Assembly (NCBI GenBank): GCA_018829965.1
Contig: JAHJTG010000016.1
Span: 93,537 to 157,536 of the forward strand
Reading direction: 5' to 3'
From: Patescibacteria group bacterium
GTDB taxonomy: Bacteria; Patescibacteriota; Minisyncoccia; Minisyncoccales; Staskawiczbacteraceae
Length of the DNA stretch: 64,000 nt
This document shows, in pieces, positions 2,079 to 60,306 of the stretch. Under the pieces are notes generated by a model that ran no database searches, had not been told where the DNA came from, and worked only from the letters and a program-made list of their open reading frames with translations. Within the stretch, counting starts at the first letter, position 1; each line of letters opens with the position of its first letter. Made by a program: the position numbers and the translations under genes.

Positions 2079-3809
2079 ATGAACATAGAAACAATTCGTC
2101 ATTCATTGGCTCATATTATGGCTTATGCCATTCAAGAACTTTATCCGAAAACAAAATTCGGAATCGGCCCGGCAGTAGAAAACGGGTTTTATTACGATAT
2201 TGAAACTCAAAAACCGATAAGGCCAGAGGAATTGTCAAAGATTGAGGAAAAAATGAAAGAGCTAATTAAACAAGACATCAAGTTCAAGAAAAAACTAACC
2301 AATAAAGCCCAAGCGAAAAAGATATTTAAGAGCCAGCCGTATAAGCTGGAGCTTATCAAGGAACTCAAAGAAAAGAATGCCACTATCTACGAATCAGGCG
2401 ATTTCATTGATTTGTGTAAAGGACCGCATATAAAGTCTGGTAAGGAGATAACTCCTGATGCTTTTAAATTAACAAGGATTGCCGGAGCTTATTGGAAAGG
2501 CAGCGAAAAGAATAAAATGCTGACCCGCATTTACGGATTGGCTTTTGCTTCTAAAAGAGAATTGATTGATTATTTAAACAACCTTGCTGAGGCAGAAAAG
2601 AGAGACCATAGGATTATCGGGCAAAAATTAGACTTATTTGTTTTTTCTGATTTAGTTGGACCAGGCCTTCCTCTTTTTACATTCAAAGGCGCCACCATTT
2701 TAAAAGAGATAAAAGATTATTGCAACGAACTTCAAAATGAAATCGGCTACCAGGAAGTACAAACTCCCAACATGAATAGAGCCGAACTCTTTAAAATTTC
2801 TGGCCATTATGAAAAATTCAAAGACGACATGTTTAAAGTTGTTTCACATTATACAGAAGAAGACTATTATCTAAAACCGATGAACTGCCCTCAACATACG
2901 CAGATATATGCTTCGAAACCAAGAAGCTATAAAGACCTGCCTATAAGAATTGCTGATTTTGCCCAACTTTATAGAGACGAAAAAACAGGGGAACTTTCTG
3001 GCCTTACGCGTCTGCGTGGATTTGCCCAGGATGACGGCCATTCCTTTTGCAAAGAAGATCAGATAAAAGATGAGTTTAAGTCTGTACTTTCTGTTATTGA
3101 GAAAGCAATGAAAACTTACGGGATGAATTATAAGATAAGATTTTCACTATGGGATCCGAAACATCCCGAAAAATATTTGGGCGATACTAAAATTTGGAAA
3201 AAATCGCAACAAATGCTTGAAGAAATCTTAATTGAAAACAAAATTGAATATTTCAGAGCAATCGGAGAAGCAGCTATGTACGGCCCGAAAATGGATTTAA
3301 TATCAAAAGATTCTTTAGGAAGAGAATGGCAGATATCAACTATCCAATTAGATTTCATTATGCCTCAGAGGTTCGGCTTAAAATATGTTGACTCTGACGG
3401 AAAAGATAAAACTCCGGTCATGATACACCGGGCAATAGTCGGCTCTCCGGAAAGATTCTTCGGCATTCTGATTGAACATTACGCGGGCAGTTTTCCTGTT
3501 TGGCTTTCCCCTATTCAAGCTTGGGTTGTGCCAGTGGGAGATAATCACAAAAAATATGCCAAAGAAATTTGCGAGAAATTATTAAATGAAAAAATAAGAG
3601 CGGAGATAAAAGACGACAATAATACTATTTCAAAAAAGATTAGAGAGGGGGAAATACAAAAAATCCCTTATCTTTTAATTGTTGGTGATAAAGAAATTAA
3701 ATCAGGTTCCGTAGCAGTAAGGGAAAGAAAGAAAGGAGATGTCGGTATGATAAAATTTGCTCAATTTATTGAACAAATTAAAAAAGAAATAGAGACCAAG
3801 AAATCCTAA
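2079..3809 (+). CDS. thrS: Threonine--tRNA ligase lacking the N-terminal TGS domain
   Basis: 576 aa. Starts at editing-domain motif RHSLAHIMA. Class II core YRDEKTGELSGLTRLRGFAQDDGH, HRAIVGSPERF, and a C-terminal anticodon-binding domain. Confidence 0.95.
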   Translation: MNIETIRHSLAHIMAYAIQELYPKTKFGIGPAVENGFYYDIETQKPIRPEELSKIEEKMKELIKQDIKFKKKLTNKAQAKKIFKSQPYKLELIKELKEKNATIYESGDFIDLCKGPHIKSGKEITPDAFKLTRIAGAYWKGSEKNKMLTRIYGLAFASKRELIDYLNNLAEAEKRDHRIIGQKLDLFVFSDLVGPGLPLFTFKGATILKEIKDYCNELQNEIGYQEVQTPNMNRAELFKISGHYEKFKDDMFKVVSHYTEEDYYLKPMNCPQHTQIYASKPRSYKDLPIRIADFAQLYRDEKTGELSGLTRLRGFAQDDGHSFCKEDQIKDEFKSVLSVIEKAMKTYGMNYKIRFSLWDPKHPEKYLGDTKIWKKSQQMLEEILIENKIEYFRAIGEAAMYGPKMDLISKDSLGREWQISTIQLDFIMPQRFGLKYVDSDGKDKTPVMIHRAIVGSPERFFGILIEHYAGSFPVWLSPIQAWVVPVGDNHKKYAKEICEKLLNEKIRAEIKDDNNTISKKIREGEIQKIPYLLIVGDKEIKSGSVAVRERKKGDVGMIKFAQFIEQIKKEIETKKS

Positions 3810-3998
3810 ATCCCAAACCCTAAACTCTAAATAAGCCCAAATTCCAAAACCCCAAATCCAAAAGTGTTTATAATTATAAGCGAGGATGGAAAAGAAAAAT
3901 TTATTTTTATTTTTCAACCGAGCGAAATAATTATGTGGCAACGCCACAATAATTTAGATATTTGGATTTTGAATTTGTTTAGAATTTAGAGTTTAAAA
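3801..3998. repeat. Composite intergenic palindrome: AAATCCY heptamer arm, AGCGAGG...CCGAGCGA core element (3871-3952), TTTAGRR heptamer arm
   Basis: Read directly: aaatcctaaatcccaaaccctaaactctaaat (3801-3863), then tttagatatttggattttgaatttgtttagaatttagagttt (3953-3998) in inverted orientation. Confidence 0.7.
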
Positions 3999-4003
3999 AA
4001 CTT

Positions 4004-10345: not shown

Positions 10346-10367
10346 GTGGGATAGCATACATAGGACT

Positions 10368-10403
10368 AAAAACCAGTGCAGAATTTTTTGCTCTGGTTTT
10401 TTT
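10368..10403. terminator. Bidirectional terminator between convergent genes
   Basis: aaaaaccag...ctggttttttt stem flanked by an A-run and a T-run. Lies between the 10345 stop and the gatB stop. Confidence 0.7.
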
Positions 10404-11925: not shown

Positions 11926-12413
11926 TTTCTTTCTAAAATTACGAATGAATAATCAAACTTATTCTTTTCGTCAGCTTTATTGTCTGTTCTTTTTACTTCC
12001 CTCCATTCCTTTATATCAAATTCTGGGAAATATGTATCGCCTTCGAAACTGTGATGTATAAAGGTTAAATAAAGGCGGTTGGCTAATGGCAGAAGTTGCT
12101 TATACACCAATGCTCCTCCGCAAATCATTACTTCGTTTTCATTTTTTACCATATCTAAAAGTTCTTCTATAGAGTGCGCGACGAAGCAACCTTCTGGCGG
12201 AACATAACTTAAGTCGTTGTTTAAAATAATATTCTTTCTGCTTGGCAGGGGTTTTTCTCCAATTGATTTGAAAGTGTTCAAACCCATAACAATAGGTTTA
12301 TTCAGCGTGGTTTCTTTAAAATATTTAAAGTCGTCTGGCAGATGCCATGGCAAAGAGTTTTTGTTTCCAATCACTCTATTCTCTGCTACTGCTGATATTA
12401 TTGAAAGTATCAT
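11922..12413 (-). CDS. folA: Dihydrofolate reductase
   Basis: MILSIISAVAENRVIGNKNSLPW start. The upstream part of the ORF track covers a repeat element. ATGA overlap with the gatB start. Confidence 0.85.
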   Translation of the reverse strand: MILSIISAVAENRVIGNKNSLPWHLPDDFKYFKETTLNKPIVMGLNTFKSIGEKPLPSRKNIILNNDLSYVPPEGCFVAHSIEELLDMVKNENEVMICGGALVYKQLLPLANRLYLTFIHHSFEGDTYFPEFDIKEWREVKRTDNKADEKNKFDYSFVILERK

Positions 12414-12420
12414 ATATTTT

Positions 12421-12507
12421 ATAATTACAAGTGAAGGAGGAATATATGGAAACGAGTTTCTATATATTCCGACCGAACGACTAATTATATAAATTGCGGA
12501 GCAATTT
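12421..12507. repeat. AGCGAGG...CCGAGCGA-family modular hairpin element (variant GTGAAGG...CCGAACGA)
   Basis: ataattacaagtgaaggaggaatatatggaaacgagtttctatatattccgaccgaacgactaattatat, plus a second small hairpin. Confidence 0.7.
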
Positions 12508-13332
12508 CTAAACAGCCATTGGCGCTTTAATCGACGGATGATATTTATAGTCAACCAGCTTTATGTCTTCCATCTTAAAACTAAATATATCTTTTACTTC
12601 TGGGTTCAGCCATAATTTTGGCAAAGGATAAGGCTCTCTCGCCAACTGCTCTTTTACCTGGTCAAAATGATTTAAATAAATATGCGTGTCGCCTAAAATA
12701 TGCACAAATTCCCACGGCTCCAATCCCACAACCTGAGCCACCATATGTAAAAACAATGAATAAGAAGCAATATTAAACGGCACGCCTAAAAATGTATCGC
12801 AACTTCTTTGATACATTAACAAAGACAATTTGCCTTGAACGGAAAAAAAATGGAAAAGTAAATGGCAAGGCGGAAGAGCCATCATATCTAACTCTGCCGG
12901 ATTCCATGAAGACGCAATAATTCTTCTGTCTCCAGAATTTTTTTTCAATTGAGAAATAACATTGCTTATCTGATCTATCGGCACATCAGTATAAGGCGAC
13001 CTCCAGTTTCTCCATTGAACTCCATAAACTCTGCCCAAATCTCCCTCAAACTTTGCTTTTGGCTTCCAATAATCTGCATTAGCATTGCCATCCCAAATAT
13101 GACAACCTAGTTTTTGTAACTCTTTTACATCACTGCTTCCAGATAAAAACCAAAGTAATTCTGCTTTCATTGATTCAAATGCTAATTTTTTTGTTGTCAC
13201 TGCAGGAAAACCGTCTTTCATATTAAATCTCATCGGAACTCCGAAAATAGCTCGAGAACCAACTCCAGTTCTGTCAGGTCTATCAACACCCTCATCCATT
13301 ATTTTTTTTAAAACATCTAAATATTGCTTCAT
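12508..13332 (-). CDS. thyA: Thymidylate synthase (ThyA type)
   Basis: 274 aa. DRTGVG, PPCH (LPPCHLLFHF), DTHIY motifs. Confidence 0.95.
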   Translation of the reverse strand: MKQYLDVLKKIMDEGVDRPDRTGVGSRAIFGVPMRFNMKDGFPAVTTKKLAFESMKAELLWFLSGSSDVKELQKLGCHIWDGNANADYWKPKAKFEGDLGRVYGVQWRNWRSPYTDVPIDQISNVISQLKKNSGDRRIIASSWNPAELDMMALPPCHLLFHFFSVQGKLSLLMYQRSCDTFLGVPFNIASYSLFLHMVAQVVGLEPWEFVHILGDTHIYLNHFDQVKEQLAREPYPLPKLWLNPEVKDIFSFKMEDIKLVDYKYHPSIKAPMAV

Positions 13333-13340
13333 GTTTTTTT

Positions 13341-13400
13341 AATTATAATTTCTAGCGAGGGAGGAATGAAAATAAATTTTCATTCCAACCGAGAGACAAA
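13341..13400. repeat. AGCGAGG...CCGAGAGA-family modular hairpin element
   Basis: aattataatttctagcgagggaggaatgaaaataaattttcattccaaccgagagacaaa. Confidence 0.7.
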
Positions 13401-13401
13401 A

Positions 13402-14106
13402 TTATATTAATTTTTTTAAAAAAATTAATATTTTTTGATTTATTATTTCCGGTGACAATAACTCACTTTTATCCAAACATTCCACAACTTTAAAATCCTT
13501 TGGAAATTCTTTCGCTGCCGTTAAATAAGAATTAAGAGCGTTTTTTAAATGACTTCTGTCTTTTTCGTGTATATCTTGTTTTTTACTACTTCCCAAATAA
13601 GCTTTTCTTCTGTTTTGTTTATCTTTATCTGTTATGTTGTGTGCTAGCTTTAAAGAAAACTCTGGTGACGTTTTCAAAATAAACGTACAATCCGGCTTTG
13701 GTATTTTAAAAATATTATATTCTAAATTATACAACCAATTTACATATTTCTTCCATTCTTTTTTGCTTTTTATCTTTCCTCCTTGATGCCCAATATTTGA
13801 AACTAAATACCTGTCCGAAATAACAATCTTGCCTTCGTTTAACCATTTTTTAATTTTAAAACTAGCGTCATATCTATCACAAGCATAAAAAATAGAGGGA
13901 ACATAAGCCCCCACTTCTTCTGAGCTCCCGTATTTACCTGTTAAGTAATCATCTACTAATGCCGAGGATCTTTCTCCATGTTGTGGAAAATCAATTTTTT
14001 CTACTTTATATCCTTTATCTTTAAAATACTCAATCGCCAATTTTGCCTGAGTGGCTTTGCCACACCCATCAATTCCCTCGAAAACAATAAATTTTCCTTT
14101 TTTCAT
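13402..14106 (-). CDS. tmk: Thymidylate kinase
   Basis: FIVFEGIDGCGKATQ P-loop, DRY motif (SDRYLVS). Confidence 0.85.
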   Translation of the reverse strand: MKKGKFIVFEGIDGCGKATQAKLAIEYFKDKGYKVEKIDFPQHGERSSALVDDYLTGKYGSSEEVGAYVPSIFYACDRYDASFKIKKWLNEGKIVISDRYLVSNIGHQGGKIKSKKEWKKYVNWLYNLEYNIFKIPKPDCTFILKTSPEFSLKLAHNITDKDKQNRRKAYLGSSKKQDIHEKDRSHLKNALNSYLTAAKEFPKDFKVVECLDKSELLSPEIINQKILIFLKKLI

Positions 14107-14198
14107 AATTATGAGCGAGGAAGGGATATATGGAAACTCGTTTCCATATATTCCGACCGAGCGATTAACTATATAAACGGCTTCGCCGTTTATATAGT
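14105..14198. repeat. AGCGAGG...CCGAGCGA modular hairpin element (best-preserved copy)
   Basis: ataattatgagcgagg-aagggatatatggaaac-tc-gtttccatatattcc-gaccgagcga-ttaactat, then the perfect hairpin actatataaacggc-ttc-gccgtttatatagt. Confidence 0.75.
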
Positions 14199-14812
14199 CA
14201 TATTTTTTTTAAATATTCATTATAAACTATTTGCATCCAAACACTGTGACTTATTTTGTCACCCGACAAATCTTTTAAGCCTATCATCATTCCATCCATT
14301 TTATCGGCTTCTTTCACATTAATATTCGAGCTATCCCCCACGAAATGATAGACTAATCCTAAATGCACTTGCTCCACTGATCTTGATTCGTCGTTTATTA
14401 TACCGATTAATTTTTTTTGTATTAAATTACCTTGAAAATTAACTTCTTCATTCCACTCTCTCATCATACCAACCTCTAAAATATTCTTACCCCTATCGCC
14501 ATCTTTTTTGTTTATGTGTCCACCAACTCCTAGCTGATAATCATTATTAACTAATCTTTGATCGCCAGCTGCTTTTAAATACTTGTAAGCAAAAAATTGG
14601 TCTTCAAAACTAAAAAGGATATATGGAATTATCTGCTGAAAAGAAGAATCATTTTCCATATCTCCCCTTCTTTTAAATTGGCTTTCCTTTTTTATTAAAT
14701 CGATATAATAATCCAAATTATCAGTTTTCAATCCTTGCCACTTCCCATTTTTGAAAAGAATTTCTGATTTTATGACCAATACCTGCTCGTCCTCTTTTTT
14801 TATTTTTTCCAT
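14198..14812 (-). CDS. Hypothetical protein with a degenerate Nudix-like box
   Basis: GGHINKKDGDRGKNILEVGMMREWNEEV resembles the GX5EX7REUXEEXGU box. Sits inside the dTMP cluster. Confidence 0.45.
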   Translation of the reverse strand: MEKIKKEDEQVLVIKSEILFKNGKWQGLKTDNLDYYIDLIKKESQFKRRGDMENDSSFQQIIPYILFSFEDQFFAYKYLKAAGDQRLVNNDYQLGVGGHINKKDGDRGKNILEVGMMREWNEEVNFQGNLIQKKLIGIINDESRSVEQVHLGLVYHFVGDSSNINVKEADKMDGMMIGLKDLSGDKISHSVWMQIVYNEYLKKI

Positions 14813-17646: not shown

Positions 17647-18135
17647 TTATTCTTGCATAGTGTGAGTCAATAAATCTAATGGATATCTTTTGCCTGAAAA
17701 ATAATCTTTAACCATTTGTTTTATATCCATATCCCTAAGAGTCTTGGAATCCATCGCCTCTATTTCTTCAGGGGTGAACCATTTTGTCTCTGAAACATCA
17801 TCGGCAAGATCAGCAACCCTTTTATCAGAAATTGTACCAATGAAAATAATTTTTACAGGATGATGAATTTGCCCTAATTGCTTTTCTAAATCTTTTCTAA
17901 TAAGAGAATATATTCCTAAGATATGAATTGGAGTAAAAGAAAAACCCGTTTCTTCTTCTATTTCTCTTAATACCCCCGTTGGATCTTCACCTACTTCAAT
18001 CCATCCTGCTGGATGATTCCATTTTCCCTCATCTGGTCCCTTTTTTTGAGATTCTTTAACTAAAAGAATTTTACCATCTCTTTCAATAATAGCTCCCACT
18101 ACTCCAAATGTTTGTGTAAAAACTCTATTTGCCAT
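17647..18135 (-). CDS. NUDIX hydrolase
   Basis: Canonical Nudix box GWIEVGEDPTGVLREIEEETG. Confidence 0.85.
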   Translation of the reverse strand: MANRVFTQTFGVVGAIIERDGKILLVKESQKKGPDEGKWNHPAGWIEVGEDPTGVLREIEEETGFSFTPIHILGIYSLIRKDLEKQLGQIHHPVKIIFIGTISDKRVADLADDVSETKWFTPEEIEAMDSKTLRDMDIKQMVKDYFSGKRYPLDLLTHTMQE

Positions 18136-18139
18136 AAAT

Positions 18140-20779
18140 TTATATATCTAAGTTCTTTACCGTCTTTGCATGAGTCTGGATAAATTTCTTTCTTGGCTCT
18201 ACCTCTTCGCCCATTAAAATATCAAAAATTTTATCTGCCTCTCTGGCGGTATCAATTGTAACCCTTAATAATAATCTATTTTGAGGATTCATTGTTGTCT
18301 CCCAAAGCTGTATTGAATCCATTTCTCCCAAACCTTTATATCGTTGGATAGAAATACTTTGATTTTTATTAACTGTTTTCAAAAGCTTCTCTTTTTGTTC
18401 GTCGTTATAGACATGCTTTATTTCTCTGCCAATCTGTATTTTATAAAGCGGTGGCTGAGCGATATAAATATATCCAGCGTCAACCAATGGTCTGAAGTGA
18501 CGATAGAAAAGAGTTAAAAGTAATGTCCTAATATGGGCGCCATCAACATCAGCATCAGTCATAATAATAACTCTATGATATCTTAGTTTTTCTATATTAA
18601 AATCTTCGCCAATCGCTGTCCCTAGAGCAATAACCAAAGCTCTTATCTCTTTTGAATCCAACATTTTGTCCAAACGAGCCCTTTCCACATTTAGAATCTT
18701 GCCTCGTAAAGGTAAAATCGCTTGAAAATGCCGGTCTCTTGCTTGTTTTGCGCTATTATGAACAAAAACCCCCGATGCCAATGCAAAGTTATGAGTATTC
18801 TTAACTTCTAAATCATAAACATCTACCCTTTCTTTCAATTTAACTATTCTTTTAATTTTATGGTTATAGCTTGAAACTGTTTGTTCTAATACTCTTTCTT
18901 TTCTAAAACATTCTTTATGAAAAGGCATTAAAGAATCTTCTGTTTTTAAGTCTTTTGCCATTTTGTAATTTCCGCCCCTCAACATAAACTTGTGATCTGG
19001 CGTACAAATCATCTCTTCGTCATTATCTAAAACAACTTTAATAACTTCTGCGTTTTCTTTTGTTTTTCTTGGATTATCAATTGGCTCGATTCCAACACTA
19101 CCGTCATTTTTAATTGTATAACAATAATTCTTCTTTCCTTGTTTATGTTCTTCAACCAAATTTTCAAAAGATAAGTTTCTTCCATCAGCTAAAGCAACTT
19201 CAGTTTTTCCAAACCAACAACCACCGGCACTCTCTCCTTCGACGATATACAATTCTGATTCTTCTGGTTTTCTTGAAAGACAATCTGCAAGTTTTCCAGG
19301 CAACGCTAATCCTTCTAATACTCCTTTTCTTAAAACTGTCTGACGAGCGCTTTTTGCCGCTTGCCTGGCTTTTGCCGCCAATAAACAGTTTTCAACAATT
19401 CCTTTAGCATCTGATGGGTAACGTTCTAAATAATCGCTTAAACCTTCTGCCACAGCTGTCTCTACGGCGTTTTTGGCTTCTGGGTTTCCTAATTTTGCTT
19501 TTGTCTGGCCCTCAAATTGAGGATTCCTTATTTTTACAGAAATTACTGAAGTTAATCCTTCTCTTACGTCTTCACCTGAAAGATTTTCATCTTTTTCTTT
19601 TAAGTATCCTTCCCTTCTAGCATAATCATTTAATGACCTCGTTAAAGCCGCCCTAAAACCAGTTAAATGAGTGCCTCCTTCTGGAGTATAGATATTATTG
19701 GCAAAACTTTCTTCAATGCATTCCATCTCTTGGGTATATTGAAAAGCTGCTTCAACTGCGATTTCGTTTTTTGTAGTAGCTATGCTGAAAACATTAGGAT
19801 TTCTTGGTGTATTCCCAGTAGTTAAATATTTTACGTAAGAAGCCACTCCCCCTTCAAAATAAAAGGCGTAGCTAAATTTCTCTTTAGAATTTCTTTCATC
19901 TGAAAAAGAAATCCTAACCCCCTTAGTAAGATAAGCCTGTTGGCGTAAATGATTTAGAATCTTCTTAGAATCAAATTTTATCTCTTTAAAAATATCTGGA
20001 TCTGCTTGGAAAGTAACAGTGGTTCCTGTCTTTCTGCAAGCTCCTATTTTTTTAACCGGAGACTTTACATCACCCTTAGCATATTCCTGCATATACAAAC
20101 CGCCATCTCTGCAAACTTCTGCTCTCATTTGAATAGACAATGCGCAAACAACAGAAACGCCGACACCATGCAAGCCTCCAGATACCTGATATGCTTTACT
20201 ACCAAATTTACCACCAGCATGTAAAACCGTCATTACAGTTTCTAATGCTGATTTTTTAGTTTGAGAATGTTTTTCTACTGGAATGCCTCTGCCATCATCA
20301 GAGACTTTAACCAAATTGTCTTGCAAAAGAGAAACCTCTATATTTTTACAATGACCAGCCATCGCTTCATCCAAGCTATTATCAATAACCTCCCAAATTA
20401 AATGATGAAGACCATCCAAACCAGTTGAGCCAATATACATTGCTGGTCTTTTTCTTACCGCCTCAAGACCTTTTAAAACATAAATATCTTTAGCTGTGTA
20501 TTCGTCCTTTCCTGTTTTTTCTTTTAAAGGCTTCTCGTCTCTCACTGTCTCAATAACCTCTTTTTCTACTTTAGTTTGTCTTGTTTTAGTTTTAATAGAT
20601 TCAACCTTAGTCGGTTTAACTTTAGCCACAACAGCTTTCTTGACTATTTTTTCAGCTTTTGGTTTCTTCTTTCCCTCACCTGCAACGCTATGCCAGCCCG
20701 CAGTAGATACAGCGTTTCTGGCGGGCGAAACATTGCGGGCAGGTTCTTTTATCTCTCTTATTTTTATTTTTATAGCCAT
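18140..20779 (-). CDS. gyrB: DNA gyrase subunit B, interrupted by a mini-intein. The long Lys-rich 5' extension is of uncertain translation.
   Basis: VLKGLEAVRKRPAMYIG, GGLHGVG, EGESAGG|intein|SAKQARDR, Toprim and C-terminal motifs. Possible alternative GTG start at 20545. Confidence 0.9.
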   Translation of the reverse strand: MAIKIKIREIKEPARNVSPARNAVSTAGWHSVAGEGKKKPKAEKIVKKAVVAKVKPTKVESIKTKTRQTKVEKEVIETVRDEKPLKEKTGKDEYTAKDIYVLKGLEAVRKRPAMYIGSTGLDGLHHLIWEVIDNSLDEAMAGHCKNIEVSLLQDNLVKVSDDGRGIPVEKHSQTKKSALETVMTVLHAGGKFGSKAYQVSGGLHGVGVSVVCALSIQMRAEVCRDGGLYMQEYAKGDVKSPVKKIGACRKTGTTVTFQADPDIFKEIKFDSKKILNHLRQQAYLTKGVRISFSDERNSKEKFSYAFYFEGGVASYVKYLTTGNTPRNPNVFSIATTKNEIAVEAAFQYTQEMECIEESFANNIYTPEGGTHLTGFRAALTRSLNDYARREGYLKEKDENLSGEDVREGLTSVISVKIRNPQFEGQTKAKLGNPEAKNAVETAVAEGLSDYLERYPSDAKGIVENCLLAAKARQAAKSARQTVLRKGVLEGLALPGKLADCLSRKPEESELYIVEGESAGGCWFGKTEVALADGRNLSFENLVEEHKQGKKNYCYTIKNDGSVGIEPIDNPRKTKENAEVIKVVLDNDEEMICTPDHKFMLRGGNYKMAKDLKTEDSLMPFHKECFRKERVLEQTVSSYNHKIKRIVKLKERVDVYDLEVKNTHNFALASGVFVHNSAKQARDRHFQAILPLRGKILNVERARLDKMLDSKEIRALVIALGTAIGEDFNIEKLRYHRVIIMTDADVDGAHIRTLLLTLFYRHFRPLVDAGYIYIAQPPLYKIQIGREIKHVYNDEQKEKLLKTVNKNQSISIQRYKGLGEMDSIQLWETTMNPQNRLLLRVTIDTAREADKIFDILMGEEVEPRKKFIQTHAKTVKNLDI
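18755..19219 (-). mobile_element. Mini-intein (155 aa, no endonuclease domain) in the GyrB EGDSAGG-SAKQGRD site
   Basis: Starts CWFGKTEV (Cys1), block B TPDH, ends GVFVHN followed by Ser+1. The exteins rejoin to the conserved EGESAGGSAKQARDR. Confidence 0.85.
20676..20742. repeat. GC-rich palindromic element type B (core tgccagcccgcagtagatacagcgtttctggcgggcg)
   Basis: The 37-bp core at 20691-20727 is 35/37 identical to 53807-53843. Outer stem acctgc/gcaggt. Confidence 0.75.
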
Positions 20780-20842: not shown

Positions 20843-22048
20843 TTAACGCAATGTAGCTCCCAAGTCCTGTTTAGTCTTTTCCCTAATTTCTTCTTGAATT
20901 TTATTTATCTCTTCATTTGTCAGCGTTCTTTCTGGCGAACGATAAACAATCCTGAACGTATAGCTCTTCTTGTCTTTTCCAAACTTACTTTCATCTTCGT
21001 ATTCGTCAATTAATTTCACCTCTTCAATAATTCCAACATTTGAATTTTCTGTCCCGACGGCTCTGCCGTCGAGGATCCTCGATGACGAAGTCATCGGGAC
21101 AAAATCTCTTACAATTTCGTAATAATTATTCAAATTTATATTTTTGTCTATCACAAAAGAAATATCTCTTGAGGTTTCCGGATACTTGCTTACTTCTTTA
21201 TACTTGCTATTAATATCTTTAAATTGGCTGGTAATTCTTAGGTCATCCGACCAAAGAACTCTAATATCTGGTATTCCCATTTTTACCATTGCTAACCTAT
21301 CTATCCCGAAGCCGAAAGCCCAGCCATTGTAAACTTCCGGATCTAAACCAAAATTCTTCAAAACCTGCTTATGAACAAGTCCCGACCCAACAACTTCCAT
21401 CCATTGCTCACCCAACTTAATATCCATCTCTACTGACGGATCCGTAAAAGGGAAAGAGTCAACGATAAACTTATGCTCAACCTTTTCTCCAAAGATACTT
21501 TTTCCGATATCGGCTAAAATATCTTTCAAATCTTCTAGGGTGATAACTTTTTGGTCTTTTTTGCAAATATATAGTCCGTCTATTTGATGAAAGGCAGGAA
21601 AATGATTTTTATCAATTTCATCTTTGCGGAAAACTATTCCAGTTGATAAAGCCCCAACACTCCCCTTTTCTTTTAATCTTTTAAAAATCTCAGGATCTCT
21701 TAAATAAAAAGGCCACATAACTGTTGTCTGCGTTCTTAAAACATATTCGTCTGTAAGGTAATAGGTATCTGTTTCTCTGCGACTCGGGTGGCCTTCTGGA
21801 GTATTTAAAACATCGAAGTTCTCTTCTAATGTAACCACTCTAGGAAAATCGACTAAATCAAAATCAGCAAATCTTGACAATTTTATTATCTGATTAGCTA
21901 AAATCTTTACAGGAGAATTCTGCTTCTTTGTAAGGTCAGGAAGGTTTAATAATTTTTTGATTCTCTCTGCTTTAATATCTTTCCTCTTCCCCAACTCCTC
22001 AATAATAGCGCCTTCTTTAGAGTTTTCTATTACGATATTTTTACGCAT
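20843..22048 (-). CDS. pheS: Phenylalanine--tRNA ligase, apparent single-chain type: PheS catalytic core fused to a C-terminal FDX-ACB (anticodon-binding) domain
   Basis: Motif 2 FRKDEIDKNHFPAFHQIDG. Motif 3 GWAFGFGIDRLAMVKMGIPDIRVLWSDDLR. C-terminus YPETSRDISFVI...KSYTFRIVYRSPERTLTNEEIN. Confidence 0.85.
   Translation of the reverse strand: MRKNIVIENSKEGAIIEELGKRKDIKAERIKKLLNLPDLTKKQNSPVKILANQIIKLSRFADFDLVDFPRVVTLEENFDVLNTPEGHPSRRETDTYYLTDEYVLRTQTTVMWPFYLRDPEIFKRLKEKGSVGALSTGIVFRKDEIDKNHFPAFHQIDGLYICKKDQKVITLEDLKDILADIGKSIFGEKVEHKFIVDSFPFTDPSVEMDIKLGEQWMEVVGSGLVHKQVLKNFGLDPEVYNGWAFGFGIDRLAMVKMGIPDIRVLWSDDLRITSQFKDINSKYKEVSKYPETSRDISFVIDKNINLNNYYEIVRDFVPMTSSSRILDGRAVGTENSNVGIIEEVKLIDEYEDESKFGKDKKSYTFRIVYRSPERTLTNEEINKIQEEIREKTKQDLGATLR
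21051..21100. repeat. GC-rich palindromic element type A, in frame inside pheS
   Basis: gtcccga-cggctctgccg-tcgaggatcctcga-tgacgaagtca-tcgggac. Translated VPMTSSSRILDGRAVGT. Confidence 0.8.
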
Positions 22049-27154: not shown

Positions 27155-28625
27155 GTTAAAACGTCATACCTGTCGGCAAAGTTAAAATGTCATACTTGCC
27201 TCAGGTCTTATCGTTCCACTGCCGATAAAATCGGCTGTTTTTTATTGATTAAAAATTGCTTTCGCCAAGGATGATTGGCTGGTGGCGTCCAACTAGCTTG
27301 TTTTCTGCTTGTAAGAGCCGCTAACTTTATATCCATCTCCTTCTTCGGCCTTTCTGGCAAACAGAAGTAATTTAAACAATGATTTCTCAGAGAAATTTTA
27401 ATCTCGCCGCTTAAATGTTCTTCAATCGTTATTTTCTCTTTCTTGTAAACCGTGGTCGGTTGGGTTTCCTCTAATTGGTAATAATTACCTTTAAACCGAA
27501 TCGTGTAATCATTATTAATTTTTCTTTCTGACTGGACTGATAATATTTTGTCCAATTCTTTCATTTTTTCTGCATCTAATATTTGATGCAGATCGCTTTT
27601 CTTTTTTGGCAACACCGCAAACTGTTTGCTGAATTTAGGAATGAATATTTCCTTTAAAAATTTGCTGGCATCGGCGATGGTGTTAATATTGCTAAGTCTT
27701 AATTCTTTCACTAACCGTCTCTGAAGCGTGTTGTTCATTTTTTCCACTCGGCCATTGGCCTGTGGGCTATTGGCGCTGATTACTCTAACGCCTAACTGAT
27801 TCATTGCTCGTTGAAACTGTGTCATTAACTCCTTATTATCAACTGCATTTTTATGATTAACCTTATAGGTGCTGAATTTGTCTAAATAGATTGATATTGG
27901 CAGGCCGTTGGCTACAAAATATTCTTTCCAGAACCTGAATACCGCCCCTACGCTTTCATTGCTCTCAAATATGGCTCCAGTGAGCTTGCCGGTGGCGTCA
28001 TCCACCGATAGAAGCAAACATTGTTCAAGCCCTAACTCTTTTTCATTCCTACCCTCAAACCAATTATGATAAGAGCCGTCAAATTGCTGCATTTCGCCAT
28101 AGTTGTCTTTTCTTTCTCGCCAAAAATGTTTTTTAGTAATACCCTTTTTCCGCGGTTTCCATAACTGCTCGCTAATCATTAATTTCCTGACAGTTTCTTT
28201 ACTCAATTTCACTTTGTTTATTTCAAATAGTTTTTCCTGAGCCAAGAGAGGATTAAAATCGTGATAATCTTTGTGTAAATATTTCTTGGCTTTTGCTAAA
28301 ATTACTGGGCATGTTTTGTTATGACTAACTTTCCCCCTGTTGCCATGAATAATTCCCTTAATACCTAAACATTTAACAACTGCCTTTATTCTTTTGATTT
28401 GCCTCACTGAGCGAGACAGTAATTTAGCAGCTTCTGCGCCATCTATCTTTTTAGATAGCAGTTCCTTAATAATTTCGTAACGATTAACTTCTTTTTGAGT
28501 CATAGTTATTAGCTGATTTTGATTCATAATTTAGTCTAAATTAATTATTAATAATTTAGATAAATTATTACACAAAACTTGTTAACTATGACATTTTAAC
28601 TTTGCCCGTACTATGACATTATCAC
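27155..28625 (-). mobile_element. Insertion sequence (~1.47 kb), ISNCY-like, with ~38-bp imperfect terminal inverted repeats
   Basis: Left end acgtcatacctgtcggcaaagttaaaatgtcatac matches the reverse complement of the right end, atgtcatagtacgggcaaagttaaaatgtcatag. Single transposase ORF. Confidence 0.75.
27208..28527 (-). CDS. DDE transposase (N-terminal HTH plus rve integrase core)
   Basis: MTQKEVNRYEIIKELL...RSVRQIKRIK HTH. DDE candidates QFDGSYH, IYLDKFS, ANGRVEKMN. Confidence 0.85.
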   Translation of the reverse strand: MNQNQLITMTQKEVNRYEIIKELLSKKIDGAEAAKLLSRSVRQIKRIKAVVKCLGIKGIIHGNRGKVSHNKTCPVILAKAKKYLHKDYHDFNPLLAQEKLFEINKVKLSKETVRKLMISEQLWKPRKKGITKKHFWRERKDNYGEMQQFDGSYHNWFEGRNEKELGLEQCLLLSVDDATGKLTGAIFESNESVGAVFRFWKEYFVANGLPISIYLDKFSTYKVNHKNAVDNKELMTQFQRAMNQLGVRVISANSPQANGRVEKMNNTLQRRLVKELRLSNINTIADASKFLKEIFIPKFSKQFAVLPKKKSDLHQILDAEKMKELDKILSVQSERKINNDYTIRFKGNYYQLEETQPTTVYKKEKITIEEHLSGEIKISLRNHCLNYFCLPERPKKEMDIKLAALTSRKQASWTPPANHPWRKQFLINKKQPILSAVER

Positions 28626-28895
28626 TTGGGCGGGACACCTTTCTTCTGCTGTAGCTTTTGATAATTGCCCAGTTCTAATGCAAGTTGGACAGCGTTGGGT
28701 TGCGTGAAAAAGGAATACTTCAACTTTTTCAGGGCTTGTGAATGATTGCATCGTTTGACTTGAGAACGTATTGTTTTGACTGTTTTGATTGTCTTGAACT
28801 ATTCCAGGCAATCTAGGCGAACCCGAACTGGCAATCACTAAAATTAAAATAATTCCCAATCCGATTACAAACCCGACGATGATTTTTTTGTTCAT
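28611..28895 (-). pseudogene. Membrane-anchored thioredoxin-like (CPTC) protein whose 3' end runs into the IS terminus
   Basis: N-terminal TM helix and HATQRCPTC motif. The last codons (VIMS, stop) are encoded by the IS inverted repeat. Confidence 0.5.
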
Positions 28896-33835: not shown

Positions 33836-34528
33836 TTATACGACCCTTAACAAACCTTCTATCCAACCAATAATTTTTCTTCTTATTTTAACCCCTTTAT
33901 GCACAGAAACCCTTACAGTACCATAATGGTTATTATAATTTGAATAAATCTTTTTTGATTTTGTATTAATTAAAACTGTTTTTGTAAATTGGGAAGATGG
34001 AATTTTCGTTAATCTTGACCAATAACCCTCTATTTCTCTTATCCTGTTTTTATGAATTTTGTTTATTCTAATTTGTAACGCGAACCTATCCATAGATACT
34101 TCGCAAACTTCTTTAAACCATTTAAGCATATAAAGAACCATTTTAGGATCTGAATTAGAAAAACTTGTTTCCTCAGCATTCACAGATGTTGTCCCTTCAC
34201 TACAATACATCGCTATCCCACCAATTAATAAATCTCTATTACTTAGTTTCCCAATTTCCTTTAACCCTTCTTCTTTGAGTTTTATTGTCTCTTCTTTTCT
34301 TGCTTTTCTAACATTCTCTAAAAATTTCATCCGACCCTTATAACTACCTTCCATCATTTTTTCGTGTAATCTTTCAATTTGTTTATTTGTTAATTTAATG
34401 TTCCTACACCAACGACTAACTACGCTTTTAGAAACCCTTAATGCTTCCGAAATGTCCTTTATGCTCTCTCCTTTTTCCCTTAATTGAATTGCTTTATATT
34501 TCTCTTTAAATTTTGCCATAGAACCCAC
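33836..34528 (-). CDS. HTH plus LAGLIDADG-like (homing-endonuclease-like) protein, free-standing
   Basis: N-terminal HTH (IKDISEALRVSKSVVSRWCRN). LLIGGIAMYCSEGT resembles a single LAGLIDADG motif. Lies between two tRNA genes, next to the group I intron. Confidence 0.45.
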   Translation of the reverse strand: MGSMAKFKEKYKAIQLREKGESIKDISEALRVSKSVVSRWCRNIKLTNKQIERLHEKMMEGSYKGRMKFLENVRKARKEETIKLKEEGLKEIGKLSNRDLLIGGIAMYCSEGTTSVNAEETSFSNSDPKMVLYMLKWFKEVCEVSMDRFALQIRINKIHKNRIREIEGYWSRLTKIPSSQFTKTVLINTKSKKIYSNYNNHYGTVRVSVHKGVKIRRKIIGWIEGLLRVV

Positions 34529-34579
34529 GTTTAATATTATTATTTAATTATAACGTGGGTTCTAAAATATTGCAATTTG

Positions 34580-34913
34580 TTGCGCTGCCTGGAATTGCAC
34601 CAGGGCCTTCAGCTTCTTTTTATACCTTTTATTTCTAAAAGGAATGGACTATACCATGTCGCCCGAGGCGACTTCCTATTATAGTCTCTGAACCTCCCGC
34701 CTTTATTTAAAGGACGGTTTGGATGCTGATTGCCAAATCTCTTTTCTTTTCAAACGTTCGCGTTTATCCTTACGGATTCCGCTGTCGTGAAAAAAGCTCT
34801 AATGGGTTTCCAGCAGTTTAAGGAATTTTTCCGCTGAGTGTTGCCACTCAGGGTCACACTTGGGCCTTTGGCCTTTATATGAGACTGACGAGGTACTACT
34901 CCTCCACAGCGCT
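34580..34913 (-). tRNA. tRNA(CAU) gene interrupted by a group I intron in the anticodon loop (exons 34913-34879 and 34615-34580)
   Basis: Exon 1 AGCGCTGTGGAGGAGTAGTACCTCGTCAGTCTCAT. Exon 2 AAGCTGAAGGCCCTGGTGCAATTCCAGGCAGCGCAA. Joined, they give a 71-nt cloverleaf with loop CTCATAA. Confidence 0.8.
34616..34878 (-). ncRNA. Group I intron (~263 nt)
   Basis: The 5' exon ends in U, which is pairable with an internal GTGTGA guide (U-G wobble). Conserved TTCAGAGACTATA core. The last intron nucleotide is G. Same insertion site (after CAU) as the cyanobacterial tRNA-fMet introns. Confidence 0.75.
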
Positions 34914-35024
34914 ATTTAAATACTATCATAAAAGGAGATGTAATCAATAGCTCATATTTCAGCCGATATAGGTAAAACAAAAAAACACCCGCCCAAGGCA
35001 AGTGTTTTTCATACTGCAATCTAA

Positions 35025-39597: not shown

Positions 39598-39607
39598 TAA
39601 AGTTAGA

Positions 39608-39862
39608 AAGCGAGGTGTTAGCGTTAAAAGTAAATTTCACAGGCTCAATTCCCAATCTGTTGAGCGAGGCGACGAGTTTAAAGATAAATTTCGCAGGCTC
39701 AATTCCCAAACTGTTAAGCGAGGCGACGAGTTTAAAAGTAAATTTCGCAGGCAATTTAGCATGGTTTCGCCGATTGGCGACCGCAACCGACCGCAACACC
39801 GGGTGTTGCGGAGTAAGGGGTTTGGATTATCGCCACTTTTATGGCTACTGCCGAGCGACATT
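39608..39862. repeat. Expanded AGCGAGG...CCGAGCGA element: ~2.6 tandem 54-55-bp units plus a conserved ~110-bp GC-rich module
   Basis: Units start at 39608, 39663 and 39717. The tail gcatggtttcgccgattggcg...ccgcaacaccgggtgttgcgg...attatcgccacttttat...ccgagcgaca is shared with 44618-44826. Confidence 0.7.
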
Positions 39863-43350: not shown

Positions 43351-44508
43351 TTATTTCTTTTTAAAATATTCTATTAAACAGCTTTTAAATTTTTCTAAAT
43401 TTTCGTTTTTAATTCTAAATCCGGAAGCTGGCGGATGTCCACCGTAAGTTATTAAAAGGTCGGCACAGGTAGCCATGGCATCAACAGAATTTACATTCTT
43501 TGGTACCCTCACAGACCCGCAGCTTTCTGTATCGCCTTTTTTAAAAATAAAAGTTGGCTTCTCGTATCTTTGAGAAATAGTTGAAGCGACAGAACCAGCT
43601 AAAATTAACGACCAAAATGAATCCCCCTCAAATATAATTGGCTCTAATGTTTTTGACTCTACTCTGTTTTCAACTTCTCTTATTATCTCTTTGATTCGAA
43701 ATTGTTTTCCTTGAGAATTTTCAATTAACCTTTGGGCTATTTTCTTGGAATCTTCTAAAGAAGAAGAGATTAAAAGTAAATATGTTTCATTAACCCTGCC
43801 AACTCTTTTACAAGTATTTAAAGCGCCGATAATTTTTTGAAGATTATTTTGGCTTTGAATATTATCCCCAAAAATTTCAAAAAAAGCTCTCAGTCCCGGC
43901 CGAAAAGTATTCCCTAGAGAGTCTAACCCATTTTCAATAAAAATTTTATTTTCATCCACTATTGGCATCATATCTGCTAAAGTGCCCAAAGCCGTAAGTT
44001 CTAAAAAACTATTTCTTAAACTTTGAGACATATTTTTTCCTAAAAGAATTTCTGATAATTTGAAAATTAAGCCAACATTCGCAAAATTTTTAAAAGTAGA
44101 TTTATCGCTCTCCTGCTTCGGAGCAACAATAATTGAAGCCTTTGGCAACCCATTTAATGGCTGATGATGGTCAATTATTATTACTTCAAAACCCATAGAC
44201 TCCGCTATTTCTACCTCTGCAAAACTGCTGATACCCAAATCCATTGAAATAAATAATGCTGGAGACAAATCCTTTAATTCCTCTATGGCTTTTTTTGTTA
44301 TGCCATATCCATCACTTTCCCTGTCAGGGAAAAAAACTGCGGAGACTTCTCCACCTAAATTCTGGATGCTTTCTTTCAAAATTATAACCGACGTTTCTCC
44401 ATCCAAGTCTGAATCGCCATAAAGTATAATGCGCTCTTTATCTTTTACTGCCTTTTTTATCCTTTCAGCCGCTTTTTTTAAATTTTTTATTTGTATTTCT
44501 TTAGGCAT
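43351..44508 (-). CDS. DHH-family phosphoesterase, RecJ-like
   Basis: ILYGDSDLDGETS (motifs I/II), IIIDHHQP (DHH motif), C-terminal DHHA1-like GGHPPASG. Start taken at MPKEIQ, downstream of a repeat element. Confidence 0.75.
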   Translation of the reverse strand: MPKEIQIKNLKKAAERIKKAVKDKERIILYGDSDLDGETSVIILKESIQNLGGEVSAVFFPDRESDGYGITKKAIEELKDLSPALFISMDLGISSFAEVEIAESMGFEVIIIDHHQPLNGLPKASIIVAPKQESDKSTFKNFANVGLIFKLSEILLGKNMSQSLRNSFLELTALGTLADMMPIVDENKIFIENGLDSLGNTFRPGLRAFFEIFGDNIQSQNNLQKIIGALNTCKRVGRVNETYLLLISSSLEDSKKIAQRLIENSQGKQFRIKEIIREVENRVESKTLEPIIFEGDSFWSLILAGSVASTISQRYEKPTFIFKKGDTESCGSVRVPKNVNSVDAMATCADLLITYGGHPPASGFRIKNENLEKFKSCLIEYFKKK

Positions 44509-44544: not shown

Positions 44545-44587
44545 TCCCGACTTCGTCGAGGATCCTCGATGGCTTCGCCATCGGGAC
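44545..44587. repeat. GC-rich palindromic element type A, intergenic copy
   Basis: tcccga-cttcgtcg-aggatcctcga-tggcttcgcca-tcgggac. Confidence 0.8.
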
Positions 44588-44617
44588 AATGAATTTTTAA
44601 TTATCTAATCTTCAAAA

Positions 44618-44826
44618 TGTTAAGTGAGGCAATAATGTATACGGAGCACTTCGCGGAGCCAAGCTAAACTGTTAAGCGAGGTGGTAGTTATAAAAGTGCC
44701 TCTCGCGGGCGATTTTGCATGGCTTCGCCGATTGGCGGCCGCAACACCGGGTGTTGCGGAGTTGGTGTTGCGAAGTGAGGGGTTTGAATTATCGCCACTT
44801 TTATAACTACTACCGAGCGACACTCT
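44618..44826. repeat. Expanded AGCGAGG...CCGAGCGA element with a 15-bp perfect stem enclosing the conserved GC-rich module
   Basis: gtagttataaaagtg (about 44684) pairs with cacttttataactac (about 44796). The cargo contains the ccgcaacaccgggtgttgcgg hairpin. Confidence 0.7.
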
Positions 44827-50989: not shown

Positions 50990-51108
50990 TGTGATTCACC
51001 ACATAATTAATCGTTCGGTCAAAATGAAAATTTCGGTTGTCAAAAATAAAAGTAAATTTTTATTTTTTTCCCTCAATTTTCATTTTTCCCTCACTCATAA
51101 TTATAAGT
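50990..51108. repeat. AGCGAGG...CCGAGCGA-family element in reverse orientation
   Basis: The minus strand reads ataattatgagtgaggg-aaaaatgaaaatt...aattttcatttt-gaccgaacgattaattat. Confidence 0.6.
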
Positions 51109-59681: not shown

Positions 59682-59767
59682 GTGTCCCGACTTCGTCGAG
59701 GATCCCCGATGGTTCCGACTTTGTCGAGAATCCTCGACTTTGTCGGGACTTCGCCATCGGGATTAGT
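59682..59767. mobile_element. Nested or double GC-rich palindromic element type A, flanked by a 13-bp perfect direct repeat
   Basis: tattagatgttgg occurs at 59669-59681 and 59768-59780. Interior: gtcccgacttcgtcgaggatcc...ttccgactttgtcgagaatcctcgactttgtcgggac...ttcgccatcggga. Confidence 0.75.
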
Positions 59768-60152: not shown

Positions 60153-60306
60153 CTATTTTAAAATTAAAAATTAAAACATTAAGAAATTATTTAAAAATAG
60201 AGATTAAGTAACCTATATAATTGGTTCGCTCGCTCGGAATAAATAAGCAAAGCTTCTTTATTCTTCACTCGCTACCAATTATTAAAAATTACAAAATTAA
60301 AAATTG

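Follow-up and report, generated by a model that had tools for sequence, protein, structure and literature searches.

The window, the whole 64,000-nucleotide stretch analysed here (contig JAHJTG010000016.1 of assembly GCA_018829965.1, positions 93,537 to 157,536), comes from a Patescibacteria group bacterium whose nearest named relatives are Candidatus Staskawiczbacteria. The PGK encoded here is identical to one annotated 'Patescibacteria group bacterium'. The G+C content of the window is 33–37%, and its core genes include dnaE, thrS, miaA/B, gatB, folA-thyA-tmk, L11, nusG, gyrB with an intein, pheS, lepA, murJ, RNase P RNA, pgk, secDF and murB. A Shine-Dalgarno sequence is missing ahead of most genes. 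Near 10.4 kb (about 10350–10400) gene orientation converges and cumulative GC skew peaks, which suggests that a replication terminus lies within the window. Eight copies of a hairpin-forming element, every one intergenic, are distributed among these genes at about one per 8 kb. The canonical unit is 82–89 nt long, and long derivatives reach about 200–265 nt. The strand that bears the motif AGCGAGG is called the GA strand below, and the copies are designated c1–c4, big39, big44, c7 and c8.

An earlier note on this DNA, made from the letters alone, had listed seven of these copies in both orientations. Boxes and hairpins are indeed present at all seven, in the general form AG(C/T)GAGG ... CCGA(G/A)CGA, and a regular-expression scan together with a covariance model (R1) added the eighth, c8. 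AGCGAGG occurs nine times in the window where 3.4 occurrences are expected, a count reached in none of 100 shuffles, and the boxes are enriched well outside the window too. With R1 the six short copies score 35–68 bits (E 4e-6 to 7e-15), and the next match scores 21 bits. Each copy in the window folds far better than its own shuffles, with z between -4.5 and -7.7. Rfam holds no family for the element, either at the gathering threshold or over the copies at E ≤ 10, where only noise appeared; across the window, the gathering threshold yields RNase P and two tRNAs and nothing else. Literature searches found no description of this element.

The GA strand forms one uninterrupted helix. Its outer stem, 7 bp in which ATAATTAT pairs with TTAATTAT, is followed by a U.U pair, and the two boxes then pair with each other as G-C, C-G, G.A, A.G, G-C, G-C. 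Read inward from the U.U, the layers are G.A/A.G, G-C/C-G, G.A/A.G and G-C/G-C, often with a third purine-purine layer next, and inward of the purine layers lies an A/U-rich hairpin of 10–15 bp. In sequence the core takes the form 5'-GAGC GAGG (G/A)AGG ... CC(G/A)A CCGA GCGA-3'. A second ATAATTAT-like segment is followed by a small hairpin, hairpin 2, with conserved flanks TATAAAT...ATTTCTAT. The layout proposed earlier, of conserved boxes flanking a hairpin that is free to vary, stands as regards the boxes and hairpins themselves, but the boxes do not merely flank; they pair together. The freedom of the stem was overstated, since the hairpin has a family consensus (GGAAGAAATGAAAAT...) and is similar among the copies of one genome.

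Compensatory changes are present in the stem. In a model-guided alignment 95% of cells are paired, double changes occur at 16 of 21 pairs, and none of 500 shuffles is as good, although these counts are biased toward the structure because the model guided the alignment from which they come. Two things argue for a real signal: controls in which the pairing partners were slid, where pairing falls to 31–50%, and two independent examples. In one (L006:1309–1381; AAUGAAG / CUGAAUG) compensatory changes have replaced each of the three Watson-Crick pairs that surround the core, with G.A/A.G unchanged; in the other (L032:5621–5676) the swap affects another flanking Watson-Crick pair, and G.A/A.G is again kept. 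The pair beside the G.A core is CG 18 times, UG 10 times and UA 7 times.

On the GA strand, wobble pairs (G.T plus T.G) number 23, against six A.C and C.A. Of the two strands the GA strand is also the more stable, in 37 of 39 copies with RNA parameters (mean -5.6 kcal/mol) and in 34 of 39 with DNA parameters (mean difference 1.1 kcal/mol); for the long form the values are -69 kcal/mol for the GA strand and -53 kcal/mol for the complement. Because wobbles and G.A pairs are confined to one strand, the structure is strand-specific. The fold therefore belongs to one strand by itself, as RNA or as single-stranded DNA, rather than to a double-stranded palindrome. The structure is under selection, and on one strand only. 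Structure, covariation and strand asymmetry are all directly observed.

In the GA orientation the unit runs from ATAATTAT to ATTTCT; its length is 82 nt in copies from four different genomes, whereas c2 and c4 measure 89 nt. Immediately 5' of the element stands a pyrimidine (31 of 31 copies), which in at least 13 copies is the C of a CAT that serves as start codon to a gene on the opposite strand, and the element supplies the AT of the downstream ATG. These abutting ATGs are genuine starts: they encode the N-termini of L2 (twice), AtpD, TpiA and others (rplB, atpD, tpiA). At the far end, the ...CT of the element and a flanking A give CTA, the TAG stop codon of the upstream gene, at L007, L011, L023, L029 and c2, where the last bases of the copy are the AG of the thyA stop codon. 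When the unit is deleted in silico, four of five testable genes (L007, L023, L029, c2) retain the same C-terminus with an in-frame stop at the same codon, this stop being TGA in an ATGA overlap for two of them and TAA for the other two; in the remaining case the open reading frame (ORF) gains five codons. In 11 of 12 copies the left flank ends in WWAT, mostly TTAT, and TTAT is also how the element itself ends.

At c4 the first two bases of the element complete the CAT of tmk on the opposite strand (reading CAT/AATTAT across the boundary), and its deletion leaves a stop, 2 nt and an ATG, the architecture of the closest relative, L037. The earlier note had placed three copies of this operon directly against start codons. 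The description is exact for c4; c2 and c3 lie 6–11 nt from the start. In c3 hairpin 2 is an all-A/T palindrome that now codes for the C-terminal tail of tmk. The note had also called the ORF at 14198–14812 nudix-like; it has no match in Pfam or NCBIfam, which were applied to 44 ORFs of the window, and the genuine NUDIX gene sits at 17647–18135.

Orientation relative to the neighbouring genes is biased. With ORFs around the copies called naively, the GA strand of 26 copies runs antisense to the genes on both sides, while 8 copies are sense and 6 mixed (p = 0.003). The antisense copies occupy tight junctions, and the sense copies lie 17–340 nt from their neighbours.

Comparison with relatives indicates how the copies came to be there. 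In L037 and L039–L041, with ThyA 86–93% identical, tmk, thyA, folA and gatB lie 1–2 nt apart or overlap as ATGA. The gap between pgk and the DHH gene is 2–5 nt in L031 and L033–L036 (PGK 70–88% identical), the F420-ligase-like gene and murJ overlap or lie 4 nt apart in L033–L035, thrS overlaps the next gene by 1 nt in L038, and the spacer between secF and the sigma-like gene is 75 nt in L035 against 411 nt in the window. Since these junctions are empty in the relatives, seven of the eight copies in the window are insertions. R1 has no match in about 136 kb of the relatives' DNA, L032 excepted. There one copy lies at the junction of a type IV secretion system coupling gene and pgk, where the window reads TAAATG, and a second lies inside a 5' untranslated region, downstream of a conserved TTGACA-N17-TTAAAT promoter. 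The insertion polymorphism, like the codon restoration and the orientation bias, is a direct observation. Two independent read assemblies of the window organism end exactly at a repeated box; its other assemblies are identical to the window.

The spacer between tmk and thyA in L038 (9897–10000) carries a different hairpin insert (GTTAGAAG...CTTCTAAC and GTTTGTCC...GGACAAAC), and thyA there starts with GTG. The same junction has thus been hit by another element family.

Beyond these relatives, a strict-pattern scan that took one genome per species gave 30 loci, of which about 26 are true copies; these come from about 17 metagenome-assembled genomes (MAGs), all Patescibacteria. Four of the 30 lack the hairpin and look like chance matches. 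The MAGs with true copies are labelled Parcubacteria, Staskawicz- or Yanofskybacteria, 'Patescibacteria group' or, automatically, 'Saccharibacteria'. NCBI taxonomy treats Staskawicz- and Yanofskybacteria as distinct candidate phyla within the Parcubacteria group. R1 makes 37 matches in the scanned loci, tandem copies included. The foot (R)AGYGAGG is found in 39 of 39 copies, a set ascertained with the strict 5' pattern. The family is patchy, abundant in some genomes and absent from the roughly 136 kb of relatives' DNA mentioned above. Viral contigs gave no convincing match, the one hit being a chance one inside a coding region, and a metagenome scan for the inner domain of the long form gave 83 matches, all of them chance matches in GC-rich contigs without blastn homology.

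Two different MAGs (L007 and L026) have a copy at the same junction, immediately upstream of rplB (L2), with hairpin sequences that differ. Either ATGAAAAT has been targeted repeatedly, or an old insertion has been homogenised within each genome.

Copies of the element in the 64-kb window
Copy	Coordinates	Strand	R1 (bits)	Form and setting	Parts
c1	3870–3950	+	66.7	sense orientation; between thrS and next gene	ATAATTAT; AGCGAGG 3879–3885; hairpin; CCGAGCGA 3918–3925; ATAATTAT; hairpin 2 GTGGCAACGCCAC 3935–3947
c2	12421–12509	+	61.9	89-nt unit	boxes AGTGAAGG and CCGAACGA (U-A compensatory pair)
c3	13341–13431	+	64.9	degenerate copy	3' box CCGAGAGA 13389–13396
c4	14105–14193	+	67.6	89-nt full unit	outer stem arm ATAATTAT 14105–14112; 5' box AGCGAGG 14114–14120; hairpin 1; 3' box CCGAGCGA 14157–14164; then TTAACTAT; hairpin 2 AAACGGC-TTC-GCCGTTT
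big39	39598–39862	+		long form; between F420-ligase-like gene and murJ; CATT direct repeat on both flanks	three tandem 54-nt 5' halves (boxes 39609, 39663, 39717); one 3' box 39851–39858; GC-rich inner domain
big44	44610–44825	+		long form; between pgk and DHH gene (DHH start 44508)	two 5' halves (boxes 44623, 44675); perfect 17-bp stem; inner domain as big39; 3' box 44813–44820
c7	50990–51105	-	35.1	sense orientation; between secF and sigma-like gene	nested second GAGG...CCGA layer in hairpin; hairpin 2 at 50990–51003
c8	60215–60283	-	47	sense orientation; between murB and hpf	outer stem TAATTGGT/ACCAATTA; three stacked purine-purine layers (AGCGAGTGAAG / CCGAGCGAGCGA)

The two long forms keep the boxes and the 17-bp stem around a GC-rich domain, whose identity from one form to the other is about 79% by blastn and 85% by alignment columns, and their extra 5' halves are repeated in tandem with a period of 54 nt. 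Two gene starts beside the copies had to be re-assigned. The start of folA is the ATG at 12413 rather than the TTG at 12554, and that of the DHH gene is at 44508 rather than 44589; both mechanical calls lie too far upstream, and the ORF extensions run into inserted repeats.

On balance we favour the view that these copies represent a mobile, non-autonomous DNA repeat found in ultra-small bacteria of the Parcubacteria group, akin to repetitive extragenic palindromes (REPs) or miniature inverted-repeat transposable elements (MITEs), and that it is probably recognised as folded single-stranded DNA. Its being small, non-coding, present in high copy number, patchy between close relatives and homogeneous within a genome all point to this kind of repeat, as do the tandem mosaics, the precise insertion sites and the conserved irregularities of one strand. 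The earlier note had held such a DNA-level nature to be as likely as an RNA function; the insertions relative to close relatives, the patchy distribution and the broken assemblies speak for the former, and an RNA function is shown by nothing.

We infer both the folding of single-stranded DNA rather than RNA and the type of enzyme. The GA strand would fold into the 7-bp ATAATTAT stem, two to three tandem sheared-type G.A/A.G layers separated by two G-C pairs (5'-GAGC GAGG GAGG / CCGA CCGA GCGA-3'), the long A/U-rich hairpin and finally the small hairpin 2. A strand-specific enzyme acting in trans may use this irregular hairpin as its recognition module, and the best candidate for it is an HUH/Y1-type single-strand transposase or nuclease of the kind that moves REPs and the ends of IS200/IS605. 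Such enzymes recognise REPs and IS200/IS605 ends by conserved irregularities on one strand of the stem (PMC3479197, PMC6006769), and the comparable irregularities here favour recognition of folded single-stranded DNA by a trans-acting enzyme. Insertion occurs between T and a purine, usually AT/G or AT/A, and mostly at the stop/start overlap of closely packed genes. In the common orientation the ends of the element rebuild the upstream stop (T+AG) and the AT of the downstream ATG. With both codons rebuilt, the element is tolerated inside operons.

Several observations weigh against this view. The earlier note had suggested a search for a REP-associated tyrosine transposase (RAYT). Neither a Y1 nor a RAYT gene turned up: tblastn searches that used E. 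coli RAYT and IS200 TnpA as queries gave nothing below E = 0.6 in 425 kb of DNA from the candidate phyla radiation (CPR), and Y1_Tnp was not found in the 44 window ORFs by Pfam or NCBIfam. The sole transposase of the window, of the ISNCY family (27208–28527), is associated with inverted repeats unrelated to the element. A 2-bp AT direct repeat flanks five of six analysed copies, c2 having none; longer flanking repeats (TAT or TATGA at c4, CATT at big39) could be target duplications, of which HUH transposition makes none. The CATT repeat of big39 would rebuild a start of murJ that lies within the final part of the gene upstream, as in L033. The direction of the GA strand relative to inferred replication is inconsistent in the window, three copies against five with a terminus at about 10.4 kb. 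The advantage of the GA strand is smaller with DNA parameters than with RNA parameters. Finally, REPs are usually species-specific, and the sharing of these boxes by two NCBI candidate phyla may point to a function in the host instead. Mobility could, as it does for REPs, go together with a secondary role in the host or as RNA.

The closest parallels are with REP, BIME and REPIN sequences mobilised by RAYT (TnpA-REP) enzymes of the HUH class (PMC3116915, PMC3479197, PMC3733652, PMC6006769). Like them, the element is a short, high-copy, extragenic, non-coding imperfect palindrome, with strand-specific irregularities in the stem and conserved bases at the hairpin foot. It shares their mosaic or tandem arrangement with other small hairpins and their occurrence in both orientations, mostly between co-directional genes. 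The foot differs. REPs carry a GT[AG]G/CGTC tag, whereas the foot RAGYGAGG pairs with CCGARCGA through tandem G.A; a GT[AG]G or CGTC tag is absent from the 0–2 nt 5' of the foot, where only c8 happens to read GGTAGCGAG. The element is also longer, A/T-rich, inserted exactly at stop/start junctions and, in the DNA searched, unaccompanied by RAYT. It shares with the IS200/IS605-derived palindrome-associated transposable elements (PATEs) and with IS608-type ends (PMC6006769) two hairpins on the same strand, the lack of terminal inverted repeats, at most a trivial flanking repeat, and tandem copies. The match between the left flank and the TTAT end of the element resembles the cleavage tetranucleotides of IS608. 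It differs from these in that neither a Y1 transposase nor an autonomous parent was seen in the DNA searched, in that a lagging-strand bias could not be made out from the mixed copies of the window, and in that conserved folding and the best fit to the IS608 layout fall on different strands, the latter on the gene strand. With neither a Y1 or RAYT gene nor the GT[AG]G tag found, the element appears to work like a REP or PATE but to stand outside the described REP families.

More distant likenesses exist. Correia elements of Neisseria, enterobacterial ERIC sequences and the RPEs of Rickettsia are palindromic repeats of about 100 nt in or near genes, co-transcribed, patchy between strains and tolerated through preserved reading frames or signals. 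Correia elements differ by their clear 26-bp inverted repeats and their TA duplication, and RPEs insert in frame inside ORFs. None of the three is known to have a conserved tandem G.A core or to regenerate both a stop and a start codon. The attC sites of integrons likewise place conserved boxes around a variable terminal structure at ORF boundaries, and their recognised strand, which folds antisense to the ORFs, is marked by non-Watson-Crick features. An integron site was nevertheless rejected: the short copies carry ATAATTAT stems and not the core sites RYYYAAC / GTTRRRY, GTTAAGC occurs at one end only in the long copies, the window ORFs include no integrase, and the flanking genes are core housekeeping genes in conserved order rather than cassettes.

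It is conceivable, though we consider it unlikely, that the fold is that of a structured RNA, in which the GA strand would serve as a protein-binding platform and act either as an antisense small RNA on the adjacent start or as a sense leader, processing or stability element. Strong covariation and strand-specific wobbles are what such an RNA should display, and the GA strand is much the more stable with RNA parameters; yet the strand that folds is antisense to the flanking genes in 26 copies and sense in 8. A YATAAT hexamer lies 6–7 nt ahead of the 5' box in every copy, but there is no -35 or other conserved upstream signal, promoter-like sites do not exceed the shuffled expectation, and hairpin 2 resembles a terminator in one copy only. 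A copy that precedes a 16S rRNA gene of the same strand by about 25 nt (L008), an orthologous copy retained in two Yanofskybacteria (L013, L025) and the boxes common to candidate phyla would all accord with a conserved RNA. Against this, the same junctions in close relatives have no copies, so that the element is not required for those genes, and no Rfam family matches.

Mobilisation by a DDE transposase is a doubtful alternative, in which the imperfect palindrome would represent terminal inverted repeats of a MITE and a short A/T-rich sequence (AT/TA or ATAATT) the target duplication. The AT, TATGA and CATT repeats noted above suit this account, and ATAATT-like sequence stands on both sides of several copies. 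A consistent duplication was nevertheless not established; TA, TAA, AT, 5 bp and 8 bp were tried, and none fits all copies. Tandem arrays whose unit junctions fall in AATAATTAT (L005, L014, L015, L021) are also in its favour, but the two ends, ATAATTATGAG... and ...ATTTCT, do not form an inverted repeat. The window does hold a DDE transposase, that of ISNCY, whose inverted repeat GGCAAAGTTAAAATGTCATA is unrelated to the element ends and which was rejected as a partner on that ground. Moreover, the conserved mismatches are strand-specific, and a transposase that binds double-stranded DNA would not select these.

Very little probability is given to the element being an expression cassette, that is, a portable set of DNA signals comprising a promoter on the gene strand (TAGAAA-N16-TATAAT), a terminator, a stop/start-joining structure that preserves translational coupling, or some combination of these. 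Promoter-like matches on the gene strand do occur inside c2 (10/12) and c4 (9/12), but overall such sites are at chance level, with seven found and 8.8 expected. TTGACA-N17-TAnnnT promoters are used in these genomes, although the L032 copy lies downstream of one that already existed, and relatives express the same operons without the element. The stop and start codons at the two feet of the folded unit are in keeping with a joining structure, which would leave the strand-specific pattern of G.A and G.U unexplained.

Other candidates were tried and set aside. A small ORF on the GA strand lacks ATG in 12 of 39 copies and its frames are split 15/7/5, so no peptide is encoded; an independent small RNA gene would have no conserved -35 and only chance-level promoter-like sites; Shine-Dalgarno mimicry is contradicted by GGAGG in only 7 of 39 copies and by a genome mostly without such sequences. 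The G.A pairs lie in a symmetric helix with no 3-nt bulge, unlike a k-turn, and an intrinsic terminator is excluded in that a T run never follows hairpin 1 and hairpin 2 qualifies in c4 only. TTA(A)GCGAGG resembles the retron branch site, but no reverse transcriptase gene lies beside any copy, and retron msr/msd was rejected.

Some other features of the window deserve mention. A second palindromic repeat family occurs at 21050–21100, 44545–44590 and 59690–59760, all on the minus strand, with the layout GTCCCGA, small hairpin, TCGAGGATCCTCGA, small hairpin, TCGGGAC, which amounts to a three-hairpin cloverleaf. One copy lies inside the pheS ORF (20843–22048), apparently in frame; the others are intergenic, and one adjoins big44. 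The ISNCY-family insertion sequence is complete (27175–28606), with a 439-residue transposase (NCBIfam NF033594, 358 bits) and inverted repeats of 23 nt, and appears to lie within or beside a truncated small ORF (28611–28895). Telomere-like low-complexity tracts (CCCTAAA / TTTAGGATTTAGG variants) occupy spacers at 3800–3870, 3955–4000 and upstream of 8971 and 15841. The intein of gyrB (18140–20779, minus strand; Intein_splicing domain at residues 529–675) is also present in the relative L041, and none is found in L038. A non-coding stretch of about 400 nt, richer in G+C (34530–34935, minus strand), separates a SWIB-like gene from an ORF with only a helix-turn-helix (33836–34528, a weak IS630-type match) and adjoins tRNA-Met and tRNA-Asp. 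It has no Rfam match at the gathering threshold and could be a structured RNA or the remnant of an element.

Patescibacteria have streamlined genomes of about 1 Mb that are generally thought to be poor in repeats. The density of copies, together with other repeat families that close relatives lack, indicates that bursts of repeats take place even in minimal genomes. Such bursts also break assemblies. Gene calling in CPR MAGs is affected as well, in that C-terminal tails and starts can derive from the element, as does the tail of tmk at c3. The invariant tandem G.A layers between covarying flanks are an unusual nucleic-acid motif and should have a specific protein partner. That protein would identify the mobilising, or domesticated, enzyme in a phylum for which few genetic tools exist. 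To return to the favoured reading, that of a mobile repeat folding as a single strand, the rebuilding of codons at ATGA-type overlaps offers an explanation of how selfish DNA persists where intergenic space is nearly nil.

A more specific proposal is advanced only tentatively and is, in our estimation, improbable: that the stacked tandem G.A helix is the recognition module of a new strand-specific mobilisation system in Patescibacteria, which targets AT/G at stop/start overlaps and regenerates both codons. If true, it would represent a new class of junction-homing single-strand element, whether DNA or RNA, adapted to streamlined genomes with almost no intergenic space.

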